Below, piece after piece: positions 3,441 to 21,159 of a DNA stretch of 64,000 bases. The notes beneath the pieces were generated by a model that did no database searches, was not told where the DNA came from, and saw nothing but the letters and a program-made list of their open reading frames with translations. Made by a program: the position numbers and the translations under genes. Origin of the DNA: an uncultured Clostridia bacterium (GTDB lineage Bacteria > Bacillota > Clostridia > Christensenellales > UBA1242); NCBI GenBank assembly GCA_944350275.1, contig CALVOK010000043.1, positions 24,411 to 88,410 on the forward strand. The letters are read 5' to 3'. The first letter of the stretch is position 1. Every line of letters starts with the position of its first letter.

Positions 3441-3660
3441 GTTGATTTTTGTTGATAATTCTTATTTTTCGTTGATTTTTGTATTTTTTCGTCGGTTTTC
3501 GTTGATAATTTTAGATTTTTGTTTATTTTCGTTGATTTTTGTATTTTTTCGTCGGTTTTTGTTGATAATTTTAGATTTTTGTTTATTTTCGTTGATAATT
3601 TTAGATTTTTGTCGGTTTTCGTTGATTTTCGTTGAATTTTGTCGGTATTTTTTTATTAAT
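3441..3660. repeat. Phased array of about 21 ten-bp T-tract words (gttgattttt, gttgataatt, ttagattttt, gtattttttc, gtcggttttc, gtttattttc), including a 60-bp higher-order unit repeated twice
   Basis: Direct reading. The words stay in exact 10-bp register. 3471-3530 equals 3531-3590 except for one base. The array is T-rich on the + strand and stop-free, which explains the spurious 74-aa track ORF 3439..3663. Confidence 0.9.
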
Positions 3661-4628: not shown

Positions 4629-5417
4629 ATGATGAAAAAAGTCAAAAATTTAAACATTGTTATCACAGGCTCGTCAAGCGGGATTGGTCAGGCACTTCGC
4701 TCCTACTATGAAAGTTGTGGCAACAAAGTGCTTGGAATAAGTTTGAGCGGTGACGACTACAATGCCGACGTCTCAGATAAAGAGGCTCTTGTCAAGGTCT
4801 TTGAGGATATAAAAACAAAAGTGCCGTCAATTGATATCCTGATAAACTGCGCGGGCTTTGGTCTGTCAGGTGCAATCGAACTTATAGATGAAAAACAAAT
4901 TCAAAAGGAATATGAGGTCAACGTGCTTGGTTCGGTCTATCCTATTCAACTCGTCCTGCCTCTTCTCAGCAAAAATGGCAAGATTGTCAATATCAGTTCG
5001 GCTTGTGCCCTCTTCCCTCTGCCCTTCCGTGCATTCTACTGCTCAAGCAAGTCGGCGGTAAGTATGCTTAGCGACTGTTTGCGAATGGAACTAAGTAAGA
5101 CCTCCATCCAGGTCACCGCAATCTGCCCTTGTGATATTAAGACTAACTTCACTAAAAATAGGCAAAAAGATTTTAAAACGAATGAGCGATATGGCGAGGC
5201 TATCAGGCTCTCTGCCGAGCGAATTGACAGTCGCGAAGATAAGAGGATGAGCATTGAAAAAGCCACCAAAATCATGACGAAAATCATAAACAAAAAGCAC
5301 TTCAAACCTCAATATGTTATGGGCATGAGGAATAAATTTCTCTATCAAGTGCAAAAATTTTTCCCAAAGTCACTGGTGCTAAAAGTTATGACAAAACTCT
5401 TCTATGTGGATAGATAA
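4629..5417 (+). CDS. SDR-family NAD(P)-dependent oxidoreductase
   Basis: TGSSSGIG Rossmann motif, NCAG, catalytic YCSSK (YxxxK), 262 aa. The start could be the ATG 3 nt downstream. Confidence 0.8.
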   Translation: MMKKVKNLNIVITGSSSGIGQALRSYYESCGNKVLGISLSGDDYNADVSDKEALVKVFEDIKTKVPSIDILINCAGFGLSGAIELIDEKQIQKEYEVNVLGSVYPIQLVLPLLSKNGKIVNISSACALFPLPFRAFYCSSKSAVSMLSDCLRMELSKTSIQVTAICPCDIKTNFTKNRQKDFKTNERYGEAIRLSAERIDSREDKRMSIEKATKIMTKIINKKHFKPQYVMGMRNKFLYQVQKFFPKSLVLKVMTKLFYVDR

Positions 5418-5446
5418 GTGCGGACAACAAATATAATTTTTAAAGG

Positions 5447-5790
5447 GAACGAGCGAGAACGAGTGAGAACGAGTGAGAACGAGTGAGAACGAGTGAGAAC
5501 GAGTGAGAACGAGTGAGAACGAGTACGAGTGTACGTGTACGAGTGAGTATGTACGAGCGAGTGAACGAGTGCGAACGAGTACGAGTGTACGTGTACGAGT
5601 GAGTATGTACGAGCGAGTGAACGAGTGCGAACGAGTACGAGTGTACGTGTACGAGTGAGTGAACGAGTGCGAACGAGTACGAGTGTACGTGTACGAGTGA
5701 GTATGTACGAGCGAGTGCGAACGAGTGCGAACGAGTACGAGTGTACGTGTACGAGTGAGTATGTACGAGCGAGTGCGAACGAGTGAGTGC
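5447..5790. repeat. Purine-rich satellite: about 7 copies of the 10-bp unit gagtgagaac, then about 5 copies of a roughly 56-bp higher-order unit (gagtacgagtgtacgtgtacgagtgagtatgtacgagcgagtgaacgagtgcgaac)
   Basis: Direct reading. Higher-order unit copies start at 5521, 5577, 5633 (42-bp variant), 5675 and 5733. The reverse strand has no stop codon in any frame, which explains the spurious 142-aa track ORF 5379..5807. Confidence 0.9.
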
Positions 5791-5792
5791 AT

Positions 5793-5885
5793 GGGCTCGA
5801 AAGTCAAATTTTAAATTTCATTTAAAATTTTGTTTTGCAAACTCGTTTGCAAAACTGCTCGCAGGAGCGAGCGACTTTCGAGCCC
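5793..5885. other. Perfect four-way-junction palindromic module: a 13-bp closing stem enclosing three abutting perfect hairpins
   Basis: Closing stem gggctcgaaagtc (5793-5805) pairs with gactttcgagccc (5873-5885). Inner hairpins are 5806-5830 (11 bp), 5832-5855 (gttttgcaaac/gtttgcaaaac) and 5857-5872 (gctcgc agga gcgagc). All pairs are Watson-Crick, with at most 1 unpaired nt between helices. Confidence 0.85.
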
Positions 5886-6115
5886 AACCTCACTTTTATT
5901 TATACAAAACTCTCAAACCCACATCACTTTTATAATTTTCATGTCAACCTCGCTTTTATTTATATATAACTCTCATGTCAACCTCAGTTTTATTTATACA
6001 TAACTTTCATGTCAACCTCGCTTTTATTTATATATAACTCTCATGTCAACCTCACTTTTTATTTATACAACATTCAACCTAATCTCACTTTTATATATGT
6101 TTTTCGAGCCCACCA
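5886..6115. repeat. Tandem 34-bp repeat (caacctcgcttttatttatatataactctcatgt), about 5-6 copies, bracketed by the direct repeat ttcgagccca
   Basis: Near-identical copies at 5945-5978, 5979-6012 and 6013-6046, with degenerate copies on both sides. ttcgagccca occurs at 5878 and again at 6104. Confidence 0.85.
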
Positions 6116-6224
6116 ACTATTTAACCAATCAATCTTCCAATCAATTCTTGCTCTTATTCCACCCCTATTTTGAAAATCTATCAAAAAAGCGAGCAATGAT
6201 GAAAATCAAAGTTCGCTTTTTGTT

Positions 6225-6552
6225 GTCGGTTTTTGTTTATAAACGTCGCAATTTGTTTTAAATCATCGAGTTTTGTATGTTTACGTCGGTTTTTGTTTAT
6301 AAACGTTTGAATTTGTATATTTACGTCGAATTTTGTTGCAAATTGTTGAGATTTTTCGCAAATTGTCGAATTTTAAATATAAAGTGTCAAAATTTGTATA
6401 AAATAGTCGGAATTTGTATCAAATCGTCAAGTTTTTTTCGCAAGTCGCCGAGAATTTGTATAAAATCGTCAAAGTTCTTTGAATATCGTCGTAAATTCTC
6501 ACAAACTGTCGAGAATTTTCGTATACCGTCGAGGTTCGTCGAAAAATGTCTA
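6225..6552. repeat. Phased array of about 17 twenty-bp units (consensus roughly aaacGTCGAAaTTTTGTATa) abutting the groEL stop codon
   Basis: GTCGG/GTCGC/GTCGA/GTTGA/GTCAA cores begin at 6225, 6245, 6265, 6285, 6305, 6325, 6345 and 6365 (exactly 20 bp apart), then at 6386, 6406, 6426, 6444, 6468, 6488, 6508, 6528 and 6548. This accounts for the spurious track ORFs 6277..6573 (+) and 6419..6616 (-). Confidence 0.9.
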
Positions 6553-6569
6553 TATTTCTCTCAGCCTTT

Positions 6570-8482
<1,913 letters not shown>

Positions 8483-9800: not shown

Positions 9801-11012
9801 TTAAAGTTCTTTAATTATCTCTCCACATTGATAAAATGACTGTTTTGCATCATCTAAGTTTGTGCTTTCTTCAATAGAATTTTGGTTTTCTTCACTAAAA
9901 TTTAAGTTTTCTTCTTTGAAATTTATTTTTTCTTCATTGAAGTTTGATTTTTCTTGAGTCAAATTTGTATTATCTTCTAAATTCGAGGTCTCTTCGCTGG
10001 CAGTGTCTAAGTTAGTTTTGTCTAGGTTTAGGTTATTTTCGACGTCAGAGTGTGAGTTGTCCGCTGAAGTCTCCGCTGTTTTAGAGTTTATGTAGGCATA
10101 GTTTTCTTCTGCGCGGTTAAGAAGAGCACCTAATATGTAAATGTACAAGTCTTTTATCTCGTCATTGTTCATCACCTGCCAAACTATATCTCGCAGGTCC
10201 TGTGCCTCAATGTAGTCAAATTTCTCAAGCAGTTCTATCTCGCTGTAACTTGTAAAGCGGTACTTAAAATCACCCTGCTTTGCTTGAGAAAGTGCTTTTA
10301 CTATGGTTTTAACTACTTCGCTGAAGTACTGCTTGCCTTTTTCGTCGTAACCCCAGTAAGAGTAGTACTGCTGAGTTTTCTTAAGCAGGTTATCTTTCAT
10401 TTCCCTCGCGTCGTGTGTGAGAGAGGATGTATGCGTATGTGCGTGTGCGTGCGTATGTACGTGTGCGGGCGCGGGTGCGGGTGATAGATTATTTATTTTA
10501 TTTTTCGACAGACAAAAATTAATTTCTTTTTCTTCTTCTTTTTCTATTTCTTTATTATTATAGGGATAATTAACTCCAATTATCTGGCAATTATCTTGAA
10601 ATATCTCTTTTTTATCTTCAATTATCTTTTTGTTTTTTTTATTGTCAGTTTTTGCCTTTTCTTCTGTTGCAAGAGTGGTTTCTTCCTCGTGGTCTAATAG
10701 GTCATTTTCTTTCTCGTCAGGGCTAGGATAATAGGGATTTCGCTCCCCTTTTTTGAAGTTTGGATTGCCTTTTTTGTGACCTTTAAGACGCTTGTCCATC
10801 CTTATACTTTTCTCAATGCTAGGCAGAAAACTTGTGATAATTGCCTGCGAAATTTGTGATAGTCCTGTAGGCTCTATCCCGCTTGACATAAAGGATATAA
10901 CCGCTTTGTATGTCTCAAGTTGATACTCCTCTGGCAGTGAATTTATTGTATTTGACCAATTGGTAAAAAACACGAAACACTCTCTTTGATAAACTTTATT
11001 TCTGTCTTTCAT
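9801..11012 (-). CDS. Hypothetical protein with an internal His/Thr/Ala low-complexity tract and a C-terminal N/E-rich repeat tail
   Basis: The start at 11012 (MKDRNKVYQ...) is preferred because the RBS aaggaggg precedes it. The protein contains PAPAPAHVHTHAHAHTHTSS and a tail of the form EEKINFKEENLNFSEENQNS. No recognisable catalytic motif. Confidence 0.6.
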   Translation of the reverse strand: MKDRNKVYQRECFVFFTNWSNTINSLPEEYQLETYKAVISFMSSGIEPTGLSQISQAIITSFLPSIEKSIRMDKRLKGHKKGNPNFKKGERNPYYPSPDEKENDLLDHEEETTLATEEKAKTDNKKNKKIIEDKKEIFQDNCQIIGVNYPYNNKEIEKEEEKEINFCLSKNKINNLSPAPAPAHVHTHAHAHTHTSSLTHDAREMKDNLLKKTQQYYSYWGYDEKGKQYFSEVVKTIVKALSQAKQGDFKYRFTSYSEIELLEKFDYIEAQDLRDIVWQVMNNDEIKDLYIYILGALLNRAEENYAYINSKTAETSADNSHSDVENNLNLDKTNLDTASEETSNLEDNTNLTQEKSNFNEEKINFKEENLNFSEENQNSIEESTNLDDAKQSFYQCGEIIKEL

Positions 11013-11141
11013 TTCTTCCCTCCTTGATTTCTTTTGCTTGGCTATATTATAGTCTAGCAATTTTTAATTTTTCAAGGTTATATGCCACAAATTATTGATT
11101 CTTTTAAAGTTTATTTTTAAGTCCTTTTTTAGCCATAAAAA

Positions 11142-14977: not shown

Positions 14978-15877
14978 ATGAAAACGTCTGTTATTGAAAA
15001 GGCAAAAAAAATTATTGATAACCGAAGATTTGATGCCGAAAATGAAGCGCTTAAAAACAAGGTAAAAGCATTTGAGGACAAAACATTTAAAGAGTTATAT
15101 CAAGACTACACCACAAAGATGATTGAATCTTGCAGAGAGGGCGAGGCTCTTTCAAGCAAGGTCCAAAATATCAAAAAGAGATATCAAAAGCGGTTAAAAG
15201 AGATTGGTATTGCCTCCATTGACCCTGACTATTACTGCAAAAAATGTAATGATAGCGGTTATGTCGAGGGCAAGTACTGCTCCTGTCTTATTAAAGAAAT
15301 TAACAACATCTTGAAAAAGGAGAGCGGGTTTGACAGGCTTGAAGAGTTTGATAAAACTGATTTCTCCATATTTGAAAATGCTGATGAGATGAAGAAGTTA
15401 TATGAAAAAATGAAGGCATGGTGTCACTCTAAATTTGATAAGAATTTGATTTTTATTGCTGGCAATACTGGAGTGGGTAAAACTCACCTTATCAAGTGTA
15501 TGGCAAACGAACTTATCAATCTAAATCATGTCGTTTTGCTCACCTCCTCGTTTGCTATGCATCAAGATTTTGTTAAGAGTTACTCGACGCGTGACCTTGA
15601 CGAGAAGAGTAGTTTGCTTGACAGATATCTTAACTCTGAGGTGCTTTTTATAGACGATTTGGGAACAGAACTGAGGCAACCTAACATCACAATAAATTAT
15701 CTCTATCAGGTGATAAACGAAAGGAAGATGAATAGACTGCCGACAATTATAACCTCAAATCTTGACCTATATGAACTCAAGGACTATTACGACGAGAGAA
15801 TTTCAAGTCGAATTATTGATAAGGCATCATCAATCTGTATATTTGTCAAAGGCAAAGATTTGAGACTTGTAAAGTGA
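14978..15877 (+). CDS. dnaI: Helicase loader DnaI (DnaC/IstB-like AAA+ ATPase)
   Basis: N-terminal Cys cluster CKKCNDSGYVEGKYCSC, Walker A GNTGVGKTHL, Walker B LFIDDLG, and ITSN sensor motif. 299 aa. Confidence 0.85.
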   Translation: MKTSVIEKAKKIIDNRRFDAENEALKNKVKAFEDKTFKELYQDYTTKMIESCREGEALSSKVQNIKKRYQKRLKEIGIASIDPDYYCKKCNDSGYVEGKYCSCLIKEINNILKKESGFDRLEEFDKTDFSIFENADEMKKLYEKMKAWCHSKFDKNLIFIAGNTGVGKTHLIKCMANELINLNHVVLLTSSFAMHQDFVKSYSTRDLDEKSSLLDRYLNSEVLFIDDLGTELRQPNITINYLYQVINERKMNRLPTIITSNLDLYELKDYYDERISSRIIDKASSICIFVKGKDLRLVK

Positions 15878-15907: not shown

Positions 15908-15962
15908 TTTTTGTGCGGATGAACTGGGTGCGAGAGTTTTTGTGCGGATGAACTGGGTGCGA
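15908..15962. repeat. Direct repeat, 2 x 26 bp (tttttgtgcggatgaactgggtgcga), period 29 bp, running into the adjacent palindromic module
   Basis: Identical copies at 15908-15933 and 15937-15962. The second copy supplies the 5' strand of the closing stem at 15957. Confidence 0.9.
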
Positions 15963-16049
15963 CTTGCATAAGTCGAAAATCCTTTTCGACTTATATCACG
16001 TTTTTTAAAAAACGTGATGGTTGCTTTTGTAAGCAACCGCAAGTCGCAC
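15957..16049. other. Second perfect four-way-junction palindromic module: an 11-bp closing stem enclosing three abutting perfect hairpins
   Basis: Closing stem gtgcgacttgc (15957-15967) pairs with gcaagtcgcac (16039-16049). Inner hairpins are 15968-15994 (12 bp, ataagtcgaaaa/ttttcgacttat), 15995-16018 (24-nt perfect palindrome atcacgtttttt/aaaaaacgtgat) and 16019-16038 (8 bp, ggttgctt/aagcaacc). There are zero unpaired junction nucleotides. Confidence 0.85.
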
Positions 16050-16110
16050 ATTCAAAGAACAATTTTCTTACAAAATGTCTTTATATTATCATTATCTATA
16101 AAACACAATA

Positions 16111-16141
16111 AAAAATGCATGATTTTACTCATGCGTTTTTT
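16111..16141. terminator. Bidirectional Rho-independent terminator between dnaI (+) and the MBL hydrolase gene (-)
   Basis: Stem gcatga/tcatgc (16117-16122/16129-16134), flanked by an A-run on the left and a T-run on the right. Confidence 0.65.
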
Positions 16142-16145
16142 AATG

Positions 16146-16760
16146 TTATCTTGTTAAAAACCTCTTAAACACGGCAATGTTTTTCATTTGTGTTTGATAG
16201 GTGCTTTTCTCGCCATGACCGCTATAAGCCTCCTCAAAGGTAAGTTTTTCAAGTTTGCAAAGGCTCTCAAACATTTCATCCTTGCTGGAGTTTTTAAGGT
16301 CAGTTCGCCCTATCCCCTTTTTAAACAACACGTCACCTGAAAAGAGTTTTCCGTCTATTAAATAGCACTCACAGCACTTGCTATGCCCTGGACAATAGTA
16401 GCAGTCAACCTTAAACTCGTCAATCTGGATGGTCTTATCTTCGCCTATAAACTCAAACCTTGAAAAGTCGTCAATTGTCTCGCCATGCTTTGAATAGATT
16501 GCGACAGGGTCGGTCAAGGTGTCTTTTATCTTTTCGCTTGCATAGATTTTGCATTTGTAAAAGTTTGCATAGTCTAGCACGTGGCAGGAGTGGTCGTAAT
16601 GTCCATGAGTTAGAAGTATGCCGACGACTCTATTGTTTCCCACTGCCTTTATCAAATCATACAAGAAGGCACCACCATCAACTATTAGGCATTTACCATT
16701 TTTACTTACAATATAGACATTTGCATCCAAATATTGACCTATAAGTTTTTTTATTTCCAT
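16146..16760 (-). CDS. MBL-fold metallo-hydrolase (glyoxalase II-like)
   Basis: LTHGHYDH (HxHxDH) motif, downstream His/Asp ligands, 204 aa. Confidence 0.8.
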   Translation of the reverse strand: MEIKKLIGQYLDANVYIVSKNGKCLIVDGGAFLYDLIKAVGNNRVVGILLTHGHYDHSCHVLDYANFYKCKIYASEKIKDTLTDPVAIYSKHGETIDDFSRFEFIGEDKTIQIDEFKVDCYYCPGHSKCCECYLIDGKLFSGDVLFKKGIGRTDLKNSSKDEMFESLCKLEKLTFEEAYSGHGEKSTYQTQMKNIAVFKRFLTR

Positions 16761-16821: not shown

Positions 16822-18099
16822 TTAGGATTTTTCCTCGTAGTTGTCCTTATTTGCCTCGCCCTCTCGGCTATGCTCCTTCTCCATGTCATCTTCAAGATAA
16901 AGGGAAAGTGTCTCAAACTCGTTTAGATATGCCTGTTGTTGCATCTCTATCATCTTTACCACATACTCGGCAAACTCGCTTACATCCTTGGTGTTTATCC
17001 CTCGTGCAAGACGTTCATCAAAATTGCCCTTTGTGTCCGTTCTAAATGCAATAATTGGATATCCGTTTTTTGCAAGTTCATAGTTGGTAAAAAGTCTCGC
17101 TGTCCTTTTGTTTCCATCTCTAAATGGTTGTATCCTTGAAATCTCTAGGTTAAGCAAGCAGGCTTTCACAATTGGTGGCATATCGCTTGTGTTGTACCAG
17201 TTTATAAGTTCCTGAACCTCTTTGACAAGCGGTCTATTGTTGTATTTTGTTGGATTGCCAAGATAATCTCGCTCTAAAACCTCACGAATTACCACAACAT
17301 CCCATGCATTTACAAGCACGTTGGTATCTCTAAATTTGCCTAGTCCCCTCTCGCCGTCTCGCTCCGTTCCTTTAAATAATAGTCCATTTATCACCTCAAG
17401 TGCGTGAGCGTCAAGTTTGTCGCCGTTTTCCCTGCTGTCGCTAGCCATTTGAAGTATCTGTTGCAGTGCCAACATATGATTTTTGTTAGGAAGAACTTTA
17501 AACTCTCGTTTCATTGGGTTTACATATATAAGGTGAGTGTTCTTGACAAAACTGTCTTGAAGTTGGCAGGTTCGACACTTGCCTGTTATCTTGCTTTTCT
17601 TATAAAAATTCTTGAGGTTCTCAAGTGAAATGATTTTAAATTTGCTGTCTTTCTTTTTGAGAATTGTATTTATAGCAAGACCAAAATCTGAGTTATTCCT
17701 AAAACCGAACACACCCTCACCATTATCCTTGACCTTGCCCTTCTTGTATTGGAAGGCAAGAATTCCGCCATTGGTGATAAGTCCGTATTTTATATCCTTT
17801 AACTGCTCGTCTATCTCGCCATAGTCCACCTCTTCAAGTTTGTCGCTTTTTATCACATAGTCAAGATTGACAAGATTGTTAAATGCCTTCATAAACGGCT
17901 CAATAAAGCAGGCAAGTTTTCCCGTTCTGTACCTCTCAATCTCCTTGTGCTGAGCCTCTATCTTGCTTGTATCAATCGGTCTTGACAGATAATAGCCTCT
18001 AAAACCTACCTCTAGTCTGTCATTCTTTGCACTCTTTGGCTCTTCCTGTGCGCTGTTTGTCTCGTCCGCTTTAATCTCAACTGCTTTTTTCTCTGCCAT
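16822..18099 (-). CDS. Fic/Doc-family protein with a non-canonical active-site motif (QPFRDGNKRTAR) and a long N-terminal domain of unknown function
   Basis: The start at 18099 (MAEKKAV..., RBS aaggag) is preferred. C-terminal Fic core ...ACLLNLEISRIQPFRDGNKRTARLFTNYELAKNGYP. The NKR version of the motif is Doc-like. The catalytic His position is CAA (Gln) at 17128-17130. Confidence 0.75.
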   Translation of the reverse strand: MAEKKAVEIKADETNSAQEEPKSAKNDRLEVGFRGYYLSRPIDTSKIEAQHKEIERYRTGKLACFIEPFMKAFNNLVNLDYVIKSDKLEEVDYGEIDEQLKDIKYGLITNGGILAFQYKKGKVKDNGEGVFGFRNNSDFGLAINTILKKKDSKFKIISLENLKNFYKKSKITGKCRTCQLQDSFVKNTHLIYVNPMKREFKVLPNKNHMLALQQILQMASDSRENGDKLDAHALEVINGLLFKGTERDGERGLGKFRDTNVLVNAWDVVVIREVLERDYLGNPTKYNNRPLVKEVQELINWYNTSDMPPIVKACLLNLEISRIQPFRDGNKRTARLFTNYELAKNGYPIIAFRTDTKGNFDERLARGINTKDVSEFAEYVVKMIEMQQQAYLNEFETLSLYLEDDMEKEHSREGEANKDNYEEKS

Positions 18100-18165
18100 T
18101 TTTTTCTCCTTGCAATATTTTAACATATTTTTTATATTATTTCAACATTATTTTTGATAATATTT

Positions 18166-20811: not shown

Positions 20812-21159
20812 TTAAAAGCCTAATGAAATCAACAATGCCTTATTGACCTCTCTCATTTTCTCTGGCGAAAGAGTTGTAACTTTCTCTTGCAGACGTCTTT
20901 TGTCGAGTGTTCTTATCTGCTCAAGCAGAGCAACAGAGTTCTTGGGAAGATTATATTTTTCAGCAGGCAGTTCTATATGCGTGGGCAGTTTCGCCTTGCC
21001 AAGTTGACTTGTTATTGCAGAGACTATCACCGTCGGCGAATACTTGTTTCCAACATCATTTTGAATTATAAGCACAGGACGAACGCCACCCTGTTCACTA
21101 CCAACAACAGGGCTAAGGTCTGCGTAGTAAATTTCACCTCTTTTTATCTGTCCTTCCAT
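20812..21159 (-). CDS. mazF: MazF/PemK-family endoribonuclease toxin (EndoA/NdoA-like)
   Basis: 115 aa, [48 protein letters not shown]...PTHIEL...[16 protein letters not shown], closely matching the Bacillus EndoA pattern and including the conserved Arg and Thr/Ser. Confidence 0.9.

Follow-up and report, generated by a model that had tools for sequence, protein, structure and literature searches.

In the 64-kb window studied here, meaning the whole stretch of DNA from an uncultured Clostridia bacterium that was analyzed, the gap between two convergent genes is occupied by a palindromic module of 93 nt, which we designate M2 (15957-16049, no strand assigned). Upstream lies the gene of a DnaI-type helicase loader (14978-15877, + strand), itself preceded by that of a DnaB_2-domain protein (+), and downstream the gene of a metallo-beta-lactamase (MBL)-fold hydrolase (16146-16760, - strand), convergent with dnaI and followed by the gene of a Fic protein (-); these positions agree with the original prediction, which had placed the module between dnaI and an MBL hydrolase gene. 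Two further features share the gap. A separate bidirectional intrinsic terminator (16109-16142, no strand assigned) serves both dnaI (+) and the MBL gene (-), and the dnaI transcript would cross M2 before reaching it, so that M2 would be located within the 3' untranslated region (UTR) of dnaI. As had been argued, M2 itself is not the terminator: what comes after its closing stem is ATTCAAAG on the + strand and CCAGTTCA on the - strand, and with no U-tract there we rejected M2 as a Rho-independent terminator, hairpin 2 being only a weak internal match. The other feature is a variable-number tandem repeat (VNTR) of 29-nt period (15908-15965, + strand; unit about GAGTTTTTGTGCGGATGAACTGGGTGC, two copies), which abuts and overlaps the closing stem. 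A 26-bp direct repeat described there earlier (15908-15933 and 15937-15962) is exact and forms part of this VNTR, but its copies do not diverge exactly at the start of the stem, as had been stated; the repeat extends into the stem as far as its sixth nucleotide (GTGCGA), and it is there that the copies part.

M2 is a complete four-way-junction element, consisting of a closing stem and three hairpins. The closing stem pairs GTGCGACTTGC (15957-15967, +) with GCAAGTCGCAC (16039-16049, +) over 11 bp; the inner bases ACTTGC (15962-15967) face the core GCAAGT (16039-16044), and the outer GTGCGA doubles as the end of VNTR copy 2. Enclosed by this stem are hairpin 1 (15968-15994; 12 bp, loop TCC at 15980-15982), hairpin 2 (15995-16018; 12 bp, in the window strain a perfect 24-nt palindrome, ATCACG-T6A6-CGTGAT) and hairpin 3 (16019-16038; 8 bp, loop TTGT), none of them assigned to a strand. 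There is no unpaired nucleotide at the junction, and the 43 pairs of the structure are Watson-Crick without exception, none being G·U. For RNA (-52.6 kcal/mol, z -12.6) as well as for DNA (-39.9, z -13.5), the minimum free energy structure and the centroid both coincide with the structure just described, and none of 200 dinucleotide shuffles folded as well. When a 110-nt fold was slid across the window (mean -16.7, sd 6.3 kcal/mol), M2 reached -54.3 and a second module, M1, -51.1, the next best position being at -39.4. Likewise, a purpose-built detector that requires a perfect closing stem enclosing at least two abutting hairpins returned M1 and M2 as three-hairpin modules of the real window and nothing else, vs. 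no three-hairpin module and two weak two-hairpin matches in six dinucleotide-preserving shuffles. Both the architecture originally proposed (a 93-nt module with an 11-bp stem, hairpins of 12, 12 and 8 bp and a fully paired junction) and the contention that it exceeds chance are thus upheld by the sequence, the folds and the shuffled controls. Short-word blastn revealed no second copy of M2, of the 26-mer or of the flanks within the 64 kb.

Judged by sequence, M2 is a member of a definable family of such modules, which we refer to as the ACTTGC type. A covariance model (R1) built from the alleles of M2 alone matched three other modules among contigs and loci fetched from relatives and metagenomes (labeled L0xx), namely L014:3350-3452 in a sister species (41.8 bits, E 2e-9), a module that we call M3 (L047:4811-4922; 40 bits, E 7e-9) and L009:652-769 in a third species (23.4 bits, E 6e-4). 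The covariance search that had been suggested along with the original prediction therefore yielded three more members, all with unrelated hairpins. M3 is the third module of the window genome (L047:4818-4915), found upon extending the same contig 10 kb past the right end of the window, whereby copies within this genome were counted over ~74 kb; its neighbors are a thioredoxin gene on one side and a NifS-like gene on the other, its closing stem is GCGAAACTTGC/GCAAGTTTCGC, its arms measure 12, 12 and 7 bp, its fold reaches -53.6 kcal/mol, and immediately upstream of it a 26-nt unit is perfectly repeated three times in tandem. One contig (NODE_259) carries both M2 and M3, ~53 kb apart, and the L009 copy occupies a non-orthologous locus, a different gap upstream of a peptidase M1 gene, so the ACTTGC type is present in more than one copy per genome and at non-orthologous loci. 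Common to the four independent modules (M2, M3, L014 and L009) are the six junction-proximal closing pairs ACTTGC/GCAAGT, and members of the type, M2 included, measure about 93-106 nt and have exactly three abutting hairpins, with 0-3 nucleotides left unpaired at the junction. The earlier description of copies with unrelated sequence accordingly holds for the hairpins but not for the closing stem, given the core that members share. A family model (R2) re-finds the four members, with R1 and R2 scoring all of them at E 6e-4 or better, and R2 found no further ACTTGC-type member over 293 kb.

The pairing of these members is maintained in spite of extensive sequence turnover. In alignment A4, 97.9% of cells pair, as compared to ~40% with the partners slid by 1-3 columns; 30 of 41 pairs have changed on both sides and none on one side only, counts that are somewhat inflated because the structure guided the alignment and the reverse strand of M2 makes up one of the five rows. 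Within the closing stem, the inner six pairs (columns 13-18/121-126) are invariant and the outer five covary. No Rfam 15 family matched M2 at the gathering threshold, with matches up to E 10 being at chance level and far below gathering scores, and blastn against annotated plasmids and phages gave no match. M2 and M3 have a similar-looking motif upstream, which was of borderline significance (p about 0.05) and was not used as evidence.

M1 (5792-5886, no strand assigned) comprises a 14-bp closing stem, hairpins of 11, 10 and 6 bp and two 1-nt junction spacers. The original prediction had paired M1 and M2 as two copies; the architecture is indeed common to both, but M1 has a different closing sequence without the ACTTGC core and is recovered by neither R1 nor R2, so by their sequences the two would represent different subfamilies at best. 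A single superfamily of all module types is not demonstrated, with R2 missing M1 and reaching the sister family described below weakly (E 0.03-0.9).

GTDB relatives whose DnaI is 58-78% identical retain the order of dnaI and a convergent MBL gene, but not the content of the gap. In more distant relatives (L009-L012), the gap holds a plain terminator-like hairpin and nothing else. Among closer ones, L014/L015 (MBL protein 78% identical) carry an ACTTGC-type module in the MBL-proximal part of the gap, with hairpins unrelated to those of M2; in L016/L017 and L007 the gap is occupied by a four-way-junction element of another type (ACTATG); and in L008, from a sister species, it contains (4894-5237) five copies of an unrelated 63-nt unit, three direct and two inverted, which together form a ~340-nt palindrome (DNA fold -89 kcal/mol, z -14). 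Long palindromes, as exemplified by L008, seem to be tolerated in this lineage. Because distant relatives have a plain terminator here and closer ones have different repeats, conserved topology does not argue for a locus-specific function, and the argument from topology to function put forward in the original prediction is not borne out for this locus, the gap contents being interchangeable among relatives. Clean modules are also found at other loci of relatives (L009:658-763, L008:8781-8865 and L044:1232-1331), all with exactly three hairpins, a closing stem of 9-14 bp and a length of 85-106 nt; a scan of all fetched relatives returned no clean two-hairpin module. In several relatives, contigs break off within or next to ACTATG-type elements, which is what multi-copy or palindromic repeats would lead one to expect. 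A search of the fetched loci for filled vs. empty sites gave orthologous filled sites and element-to-element matches and no empty site. One three-branch structure in L012 (270-381, -56.8 kcal/mol), with a closing stem CCGGGGTTCGA.../...TCGAACCCCGG that includes the tRNA T-arm-like GGTTCGAA, is less perfect than the other modules.

The modules of L007 and L008 share the closing stem ACTATGTGATG...CATCACATAGT and belong to a sister family, the ACTATG family. A pattern scan for this stem gave no match in viral contigs, and in metagenome contigs it gave 20 matching stretches, of which 15 were true copies, all from gut metagenomes. Several copies occur per sample, two reside on one contig and one pair is arranged head to tail in tandem. 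Most copies comprise, in order, a constant (A)TATAA left flank, an 82-85-nt junction and a conserved 53-nt tail ending CCGATAATATAA, without a terminal inverted repeat; the copies of L008, L018, L038 and L044 are tail-less. In every tailed copy, the left flank and the right terminus of the element both read ATATAA, an arrangement that fits a fixed target better than a target-site duplication. The hairpins fall into two types separated by pair-preserving changes. The copies sit between housekeeping genes (e.g. ruvC, yebC, infC, xseA and spoIIIA), and the neighboring gene on the tail side has the same orientation in four cases and the opposite in four, i.e. without bias. The ACTATG family thus behaves as a small dispersed repeat and not as a gene-linked regulatory RNA.

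Four likenesses involving the tail and flanks of these modules were considered and set aside: 1) a near-consensus sigma-70-like TTGCAA-N17-TAATAT, reading outward within the tail at L036:1131-1184 and its equivalents (L029, L031, L037, L039, L040 and L043), is unsupported as a promoter, having been read by eye and being at odds with the even split in neighbor orientation; 2) homology among the 3' side of M1, the 3' side of M2 and the ACTATG tail (CAxCCxCAC, ACTCTC) scores no better than shuffles (p 0.03-0.96); 3) an exact 10-mer near M2, GATAATATAA, was the only one to stand out, fails correction for ten tests and was not used as evidence; 4) a dif/Xer site at the joint of tail end, TATAA and module start seems unlikely, given arms without the required inverted symmetry and the dispersal of the copies. 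The apex of the tail, CTTGC-AA-GCAAG, resembles an 'empty' ACTTGC/GCAAGT closing stem, and L026 and L030 carry other small hairpins in that place. The ORF-free 2.2 kb beside the L039 copy contains no element arrays.

The species carrying M2, from among uncultured Clostridia, has been met in several metagenome studies, and 13 independent contigs contain the module. Their MBL proteins differ by no more than 3 residues, and the stem bases of M2 are identical in all 13. Instability is confined to the apices and the adjacent arrays. The loop of hairpin 1 reads TCC in twelve contigs and GGA, the exact reverse complement, in L006, with no other substitution within that module; the apex of hairpin 2 occurs as T6A6, T5A8, T7A7 and T9A6, the perfect 24-nt palindrome being one allele; and the 29-nt VNTR numbers two copies in some strains but at least three in L020, L021 and L023, with four assemblies ending inside it. 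In L006, the terminator hairpin equivalent to 16109-16142 has also been swapped for a different hairpin, symmetrically on both arms. The replacement (L006 ~800-840) reads AAAAAACGTGA-cgaaaaa-TCACGTTTTTT, and its arms are those of M2 hairpin 2 (ATCACGTTTTTT/AAAAAACGTGAT) with their order exchanged, as though the hairpin had been everted; chance, given the requirement for an A-run and a T-run, or a template switch could account for it. Since the MBL proteins of this cluster differ by 1-3 residues and the next relative is at 78%, there are no M2 alleles of intermediate divergence from which stepwise evolution of the arms could be traced. A parallel to the loop flip is found in an unrelated perfect hairpin of ~143 nt including flanks (L027:1902-2004 and L032:3913-4015, from Ga0123353/Ga0123354), which shares the 11-mer ACTATGTGATG by chance and differs between the two metagenomes by an exact loop inversion alone (AGGTT vs. 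AACCT).

Taken together, we favor, with moderate confidence, the reading that M2 belongs, as one chromosomal copy, to a lineage-specific family of structured DNA repeats lodged in intergenic gaps of an uncultured gut Clostridia clade. The family so conceived would be small (about 85-135 nt), non-coding and cruciform-capable, with a family-specific junction-proximal stem and exactly three hairpins, and it is apparently undescribed so far. Its behavior is best read as that of a selfish or structural DNA repeat, comparable to repetitive extragenic palindromes (REPs), BOX elements or MITEs (miniature inverted-repeat transposable elements), and not as that of a gene-specific regulator. G·U pairs are rare on either strand, amounting to 2/248 on one and 4/250 on the other in six modules of the ACTTGC and other types, and to 2/527 and 9/534 in the ACTATG family, and both strands fold equally well. 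Complementarity is therefore kept for both strands, which argues for maintenance at the DNA level, unlike in an RNA selected on one strand. In addition, the loop inversion and the symmetric hairpin replacement look like footprints of single events, pointing to intra-strand template switching or recombination between arms. Template switching is documented as a process that generates and preserves perfect stems, introduces compensatory changes of several bases at once and flips loops or spacers (PMC8794818; PMC8604942).

How such a family might be maintained and spread can be outlined in three steps. We surmise that the arms are kept perfect by intra-strand template switching, through hairpin-templated synthesis or repair, whereby a mutation in one arm would be copied to, or erased from, the other; the sequence would then drift fast with the pairing never broken, and such arm-to-arm copying would account for arms that are unrelated between copies yet never mismatched. 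The structure may also stall replication and thereby give rise to the adjacent VNTRs and to length changes in the apex tracts. Tandem arrays do adjoin M1, M2 and M3, in keeping with the tie between module and repeat that had been proposed; the module may have been built on, or inserted at, the repeat, but the 29-nt VNTR, with a copy number that differs among strains (two to three or more), could equally be a consequence of the structure of M2. The least certain step is the spread, which we tentatively ascribe to a structure-recognizing enzyme acting on folded single-stranded DNA, following a logic akin to that of HUH/Y1 transposases or RAYTs; this proposal, rather doubtful as it stands, was prompted by the asymmetric ends, constant TATAA left flank, head-to-tail tandems and lack of orientation preference of the ACTATG family. 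Any effect of M2 on dnaI mRNA, be it stabilization or attenuation, would be a by-product or a co-option, and none of the observations calls for one. Carried further, the modules might constitute a new class of bacterial element, i.e. a fully paired DNA junction with an invariant core and three free arms, propagated or used by a structure-specific enzyme that, by analogy, could relate to the junction as RAYT does to the REP hairpin; we would give this extension a minority chance.

Several points weigh against the repeat-family reading, besides the inflation of the covariation counts mentioned above: 1) the ACTTGC type yielded neither an empty site nor a case of insertion polymorphism, and mobility of M2 itself is thus not demonstrated; 2) the ACTTGC type amounts to four independent copies in total; 3) M2 has neither a target-site duplication nor a recognizable tail, the link between its flank and the ACTATG tail having failed against shuffled controls; 4) no candidate mobilizing enzyme was seen beside any copy, the neighbors being housekeeping genes; 5) M3 and L014 are followed by T-runs, and some copies could act as terminators; 6) the invariant core and the strict count of three hairpins imply a constraint that a selfish or neutral model leaves unexplained and that could reflect a host function or a recognition site.

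Of the alternatives, the one that survives best, although we regard it as unlikely, is that M2 is a functional structured RNA, either in the 3' UTR of a dnaB-dnaI operon or as a small RNA, in which case the junction would block 3'-to-5' exonucleases, aid termination or insulation, or bind a protein. M2 should indeed be transcribed, lying as it does between the dnaI stop codon and the sole terminator; all modules of the window lineage occupy 3'-end or intergenic positions; the covariation is very strong; the closing stem of L014 is framed by A5...T6 and that of M3 is followed by a T-run, as in bidirectional or ordinary terminators; and BOX, BIME and Correia elements have been reported to affect co-transcribed genes (PMC3049150). 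However, RNAs selected on one strand normally display G·U pairs and strand-asymmetric mismatches, whereas here G·U is nearly absent and the strands fold equally. Nor are there conserved loop or junction nucleotides, a U-tract belonging to M2, an orientation bias of the ACTATG family toward neighboring genes or an Rfam family match, and the element is missing from the gap in relatives with the same gene order.

A less probable alternative still is that M2 arose as a local mutational by-product of iterated template switching or slippage in a neutral spacer, having no identity, mobility or function as an element. The intergenic regions of this genome are rich in tandem repeats, the L008 gap holds a different and locally grown palindrome, and the loop inversion, the apex-tract variation and the symmetric terminator replacement attest to active palindrome-type mutation at the locus; part of hairpin 1 (AAGTCG/CGACTT) moreover repeats closing-stem sequence, as expected from local copying. 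Yet such a process would not repeatedly yield exactly three hairpins within a 9-14 bp stem over 85-106 nt, nor the same six-base core at four independent loci (chance about 1 in 4096 per module), and the ACTATG family is clearly a dispersed repeat with conserved sequence.

We likewise accord little probability to a host-maintained structural site, in which a structure-specific protein would bind the junction with the ACTTGC/GCAAGT duplex as recognition element, for a role in recombination, replication restart or primosome loading, or chromosome organization: the six invariant junction-proximal pairs amid turnover of all else, the perfect and strand-symmetric pairing expected of a duplex or cruciform DNA ligand, the density of ~1 module per 25 kb in the window genome (three in 74 kb) and the vicinity of the dnaB/dnaI helicase-loading genes would suit it, but the module is absent from the same gap in near relatives, where different families are interchangeable, M1, M3 and the L009 copy do not adjoin dnaI, no associated protein has been identified, and positive supercoiling between convergent genes disfavors cruciform extrusion.

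Additional repeats and genes of the window deserve mention. M1 is flanked by tandem arrays at 5447-5790 and 5931-6069, and in a second assembly M1 is identical, the copy number of the flanking 34-nt array differs, and the left array is where that contig begins. M1 lies between the SDR and groEL genes, in a gap (5417-6570) that is 1.15 kb of non-coding DNA made up nearly entirely of tandem arrays around M1 (5447-5790, 5931-6069 and 6231-6430), with units of 10/14/56 nt (G/A-rich), 34 nt and 20 nt; no database record corresponds exactly to the SDR protein encoded upstream of M1. Two arrays 2.6 kb apart, 3466-3646 and 6231-6337, have related units (TTTTCGTTGATAATTTTAGATTTTTGTCGG-like, ~90% over 32 nt), implying that at least some intergenic tandem-repeat units are dispersed. 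The third most stable local fold of the window (-39.4 kcal/mol) is a GT-rich 18-nt tandem repeat (TGCGTATGTACGTGTGCG) at 10381-10490, within an open reading frame (9801-11060, -) that has a weak DUF6291 match. With respect to neighboring genes, the MBL protein (16146-16760, -) and a second MBL-fold protein (L047:18840-19541), encoded ~15 kb inside the right end of the window, have weak-to-clear precomputed matches to the Anti-Pycsar protein Apyc1 (PF23023), which probably represent generic MBL-fold similarity. A PemK-type toxin gene (20812-21159, -) and the Fic-domain gene (16822-18126, -) are situated less than 5 kb from M2, with no apparent link to it.

If the repeat-family reading is true, an uncultured gut Clostridia clade carries an undescribed small structured repeat of unusual design, in which arms that drift freely yet always pair perfectly are set on a fixed four-way-junction scaffold with a conserved core of six bases. 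From the standpoint of evolution, it would be a clear instance in nature of template switching that corrects one arm against the other and upholds secondary structure with no G·U intermediates, the loop flip and the hairpin replacement serving as strain-level snapshots. The elements and their VNTRs visibly break short-read assemblies in this lineage, and the hypervariable parts could serve as strain markers in metagenomics. For the study of mobile elements, the invariant core and an arm count held strictly at three suggest recognition by a structure-specific system. M2 is probably of little consequence to dnaI or the MBL gene in particular. In a limited literature search, we came across no account of a junction repeat that is fully paired, fixed at three hairpins and endowed with a conserved core of six bases.

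Among known systems, those nearest to the modules are pneumococcal BOX elements, REP/BIME/REPIN sequences with the RAYT transposases, and MITEs or IS200/IS605-derived palindromic elements. An integron attC site is dismissed, as M2 is perfectly paired with no extrahelical bases, lacks GTTRRRY at its ends and has no integrase among its neighbors. The inverted terminal repeats (ITRs) of parvoviruses such as adeno-associated virus (AAV) also consist of a closing stem with internal palindromes, perfectly paired and existing in flip and flop variants, but they are three-way, T-shaped structures that terminate a linear genome of single-stranded DNA and require nicking by Rep; the likeness to M2, which is internal to a chromosome and has three internal hairpins, is one of form alone. 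MITEs and IS200/IS605-derived elements resemble the modules in being short, AT-rich, highly structured and non-autonomous. Elements of the IS200/IS605 type insert 3' of a fixed penta- or tetranucleotide, and the resemblance here belongs to the ACTATG family, with its fixed TATAA 5' of the element, asymmetric ends and head-to-tail tandems, whereas M2 shows no fixed flank. Classical MITEs differ in having terminal inverted repeats related to an insertion sequence (IS) and variable target-site duplications, and no parent IS or transposase was identified here; the flanks of M2, AACTGG and ATTCAA, contain no direct repeat, and although its 11-bp stem is formally an inverted repeat, the outer five pairs vary and the inner six are conserved, the reverse of the pattern expected of transposase-bound ends.

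REP, BIME and REPIN sequences, together with the RAYT (HUH Y1) enzymes, offer a functional parallel. As described in the literature (PMC2817692, PMC3116915, PMC3733652), they are lineage-specific extragenic palindromes at gene 3' ends or between convergent genes, single or clustered, thought to be handled as folded single-stranded DNA, with no signature of terminal inverted repeats or target-site duplications; as described there, REPs differ in being single imperfect hairpins of 20-40 nt with a GTAG/CGTC tag and high copy number. We rejected M2 as a REP or BIME in view of its 93-nt three-hairpin unit, the lack of a GTAG/CGTC tag at either end and the lack of a second copy in 64 kb, and no RAYT, TnpA or other transposase was found among the annotated genes of the fetched loci. 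The hairpins attributed to template switching (PMC8794818; PMC8604942) have in common with the modules perfect stems, multi-base compensatory changes without G·U intermediates and exact inversion of loops or spacers as single events, but what these papers treat is how mutation proceeds in the stems of rRNA or miRNA or in short inverted repeats, and not a recurrent four-way-junction element that has a conserved core. Pneumococcal BOX elements, which are not a family in Rfam as far as Rfam searches of M2 showed, have terminal modules (boxA and boxC) that pair and internal boxB hairpins that vary in number (PMC3049150). As small, non-coding, dispersed intergenic repeats of Firmicutes, they resemble the modules in combining a closing stem with internal hairpins, multi-branched in the forms with several boxB units, and in being tightly base-paired, of strain-variable length and often co-transcribed with neighboring genes. 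By description, however, the two are set apart: BOX modules are sequence-conserved, imperfectly paired and variable in boxB count, whereas ACTTGC modules have three hairpins fixed, near-perfect pairing without junction spacers, and hairpins that are unrelated from copy to copy around one shared core of six bases.

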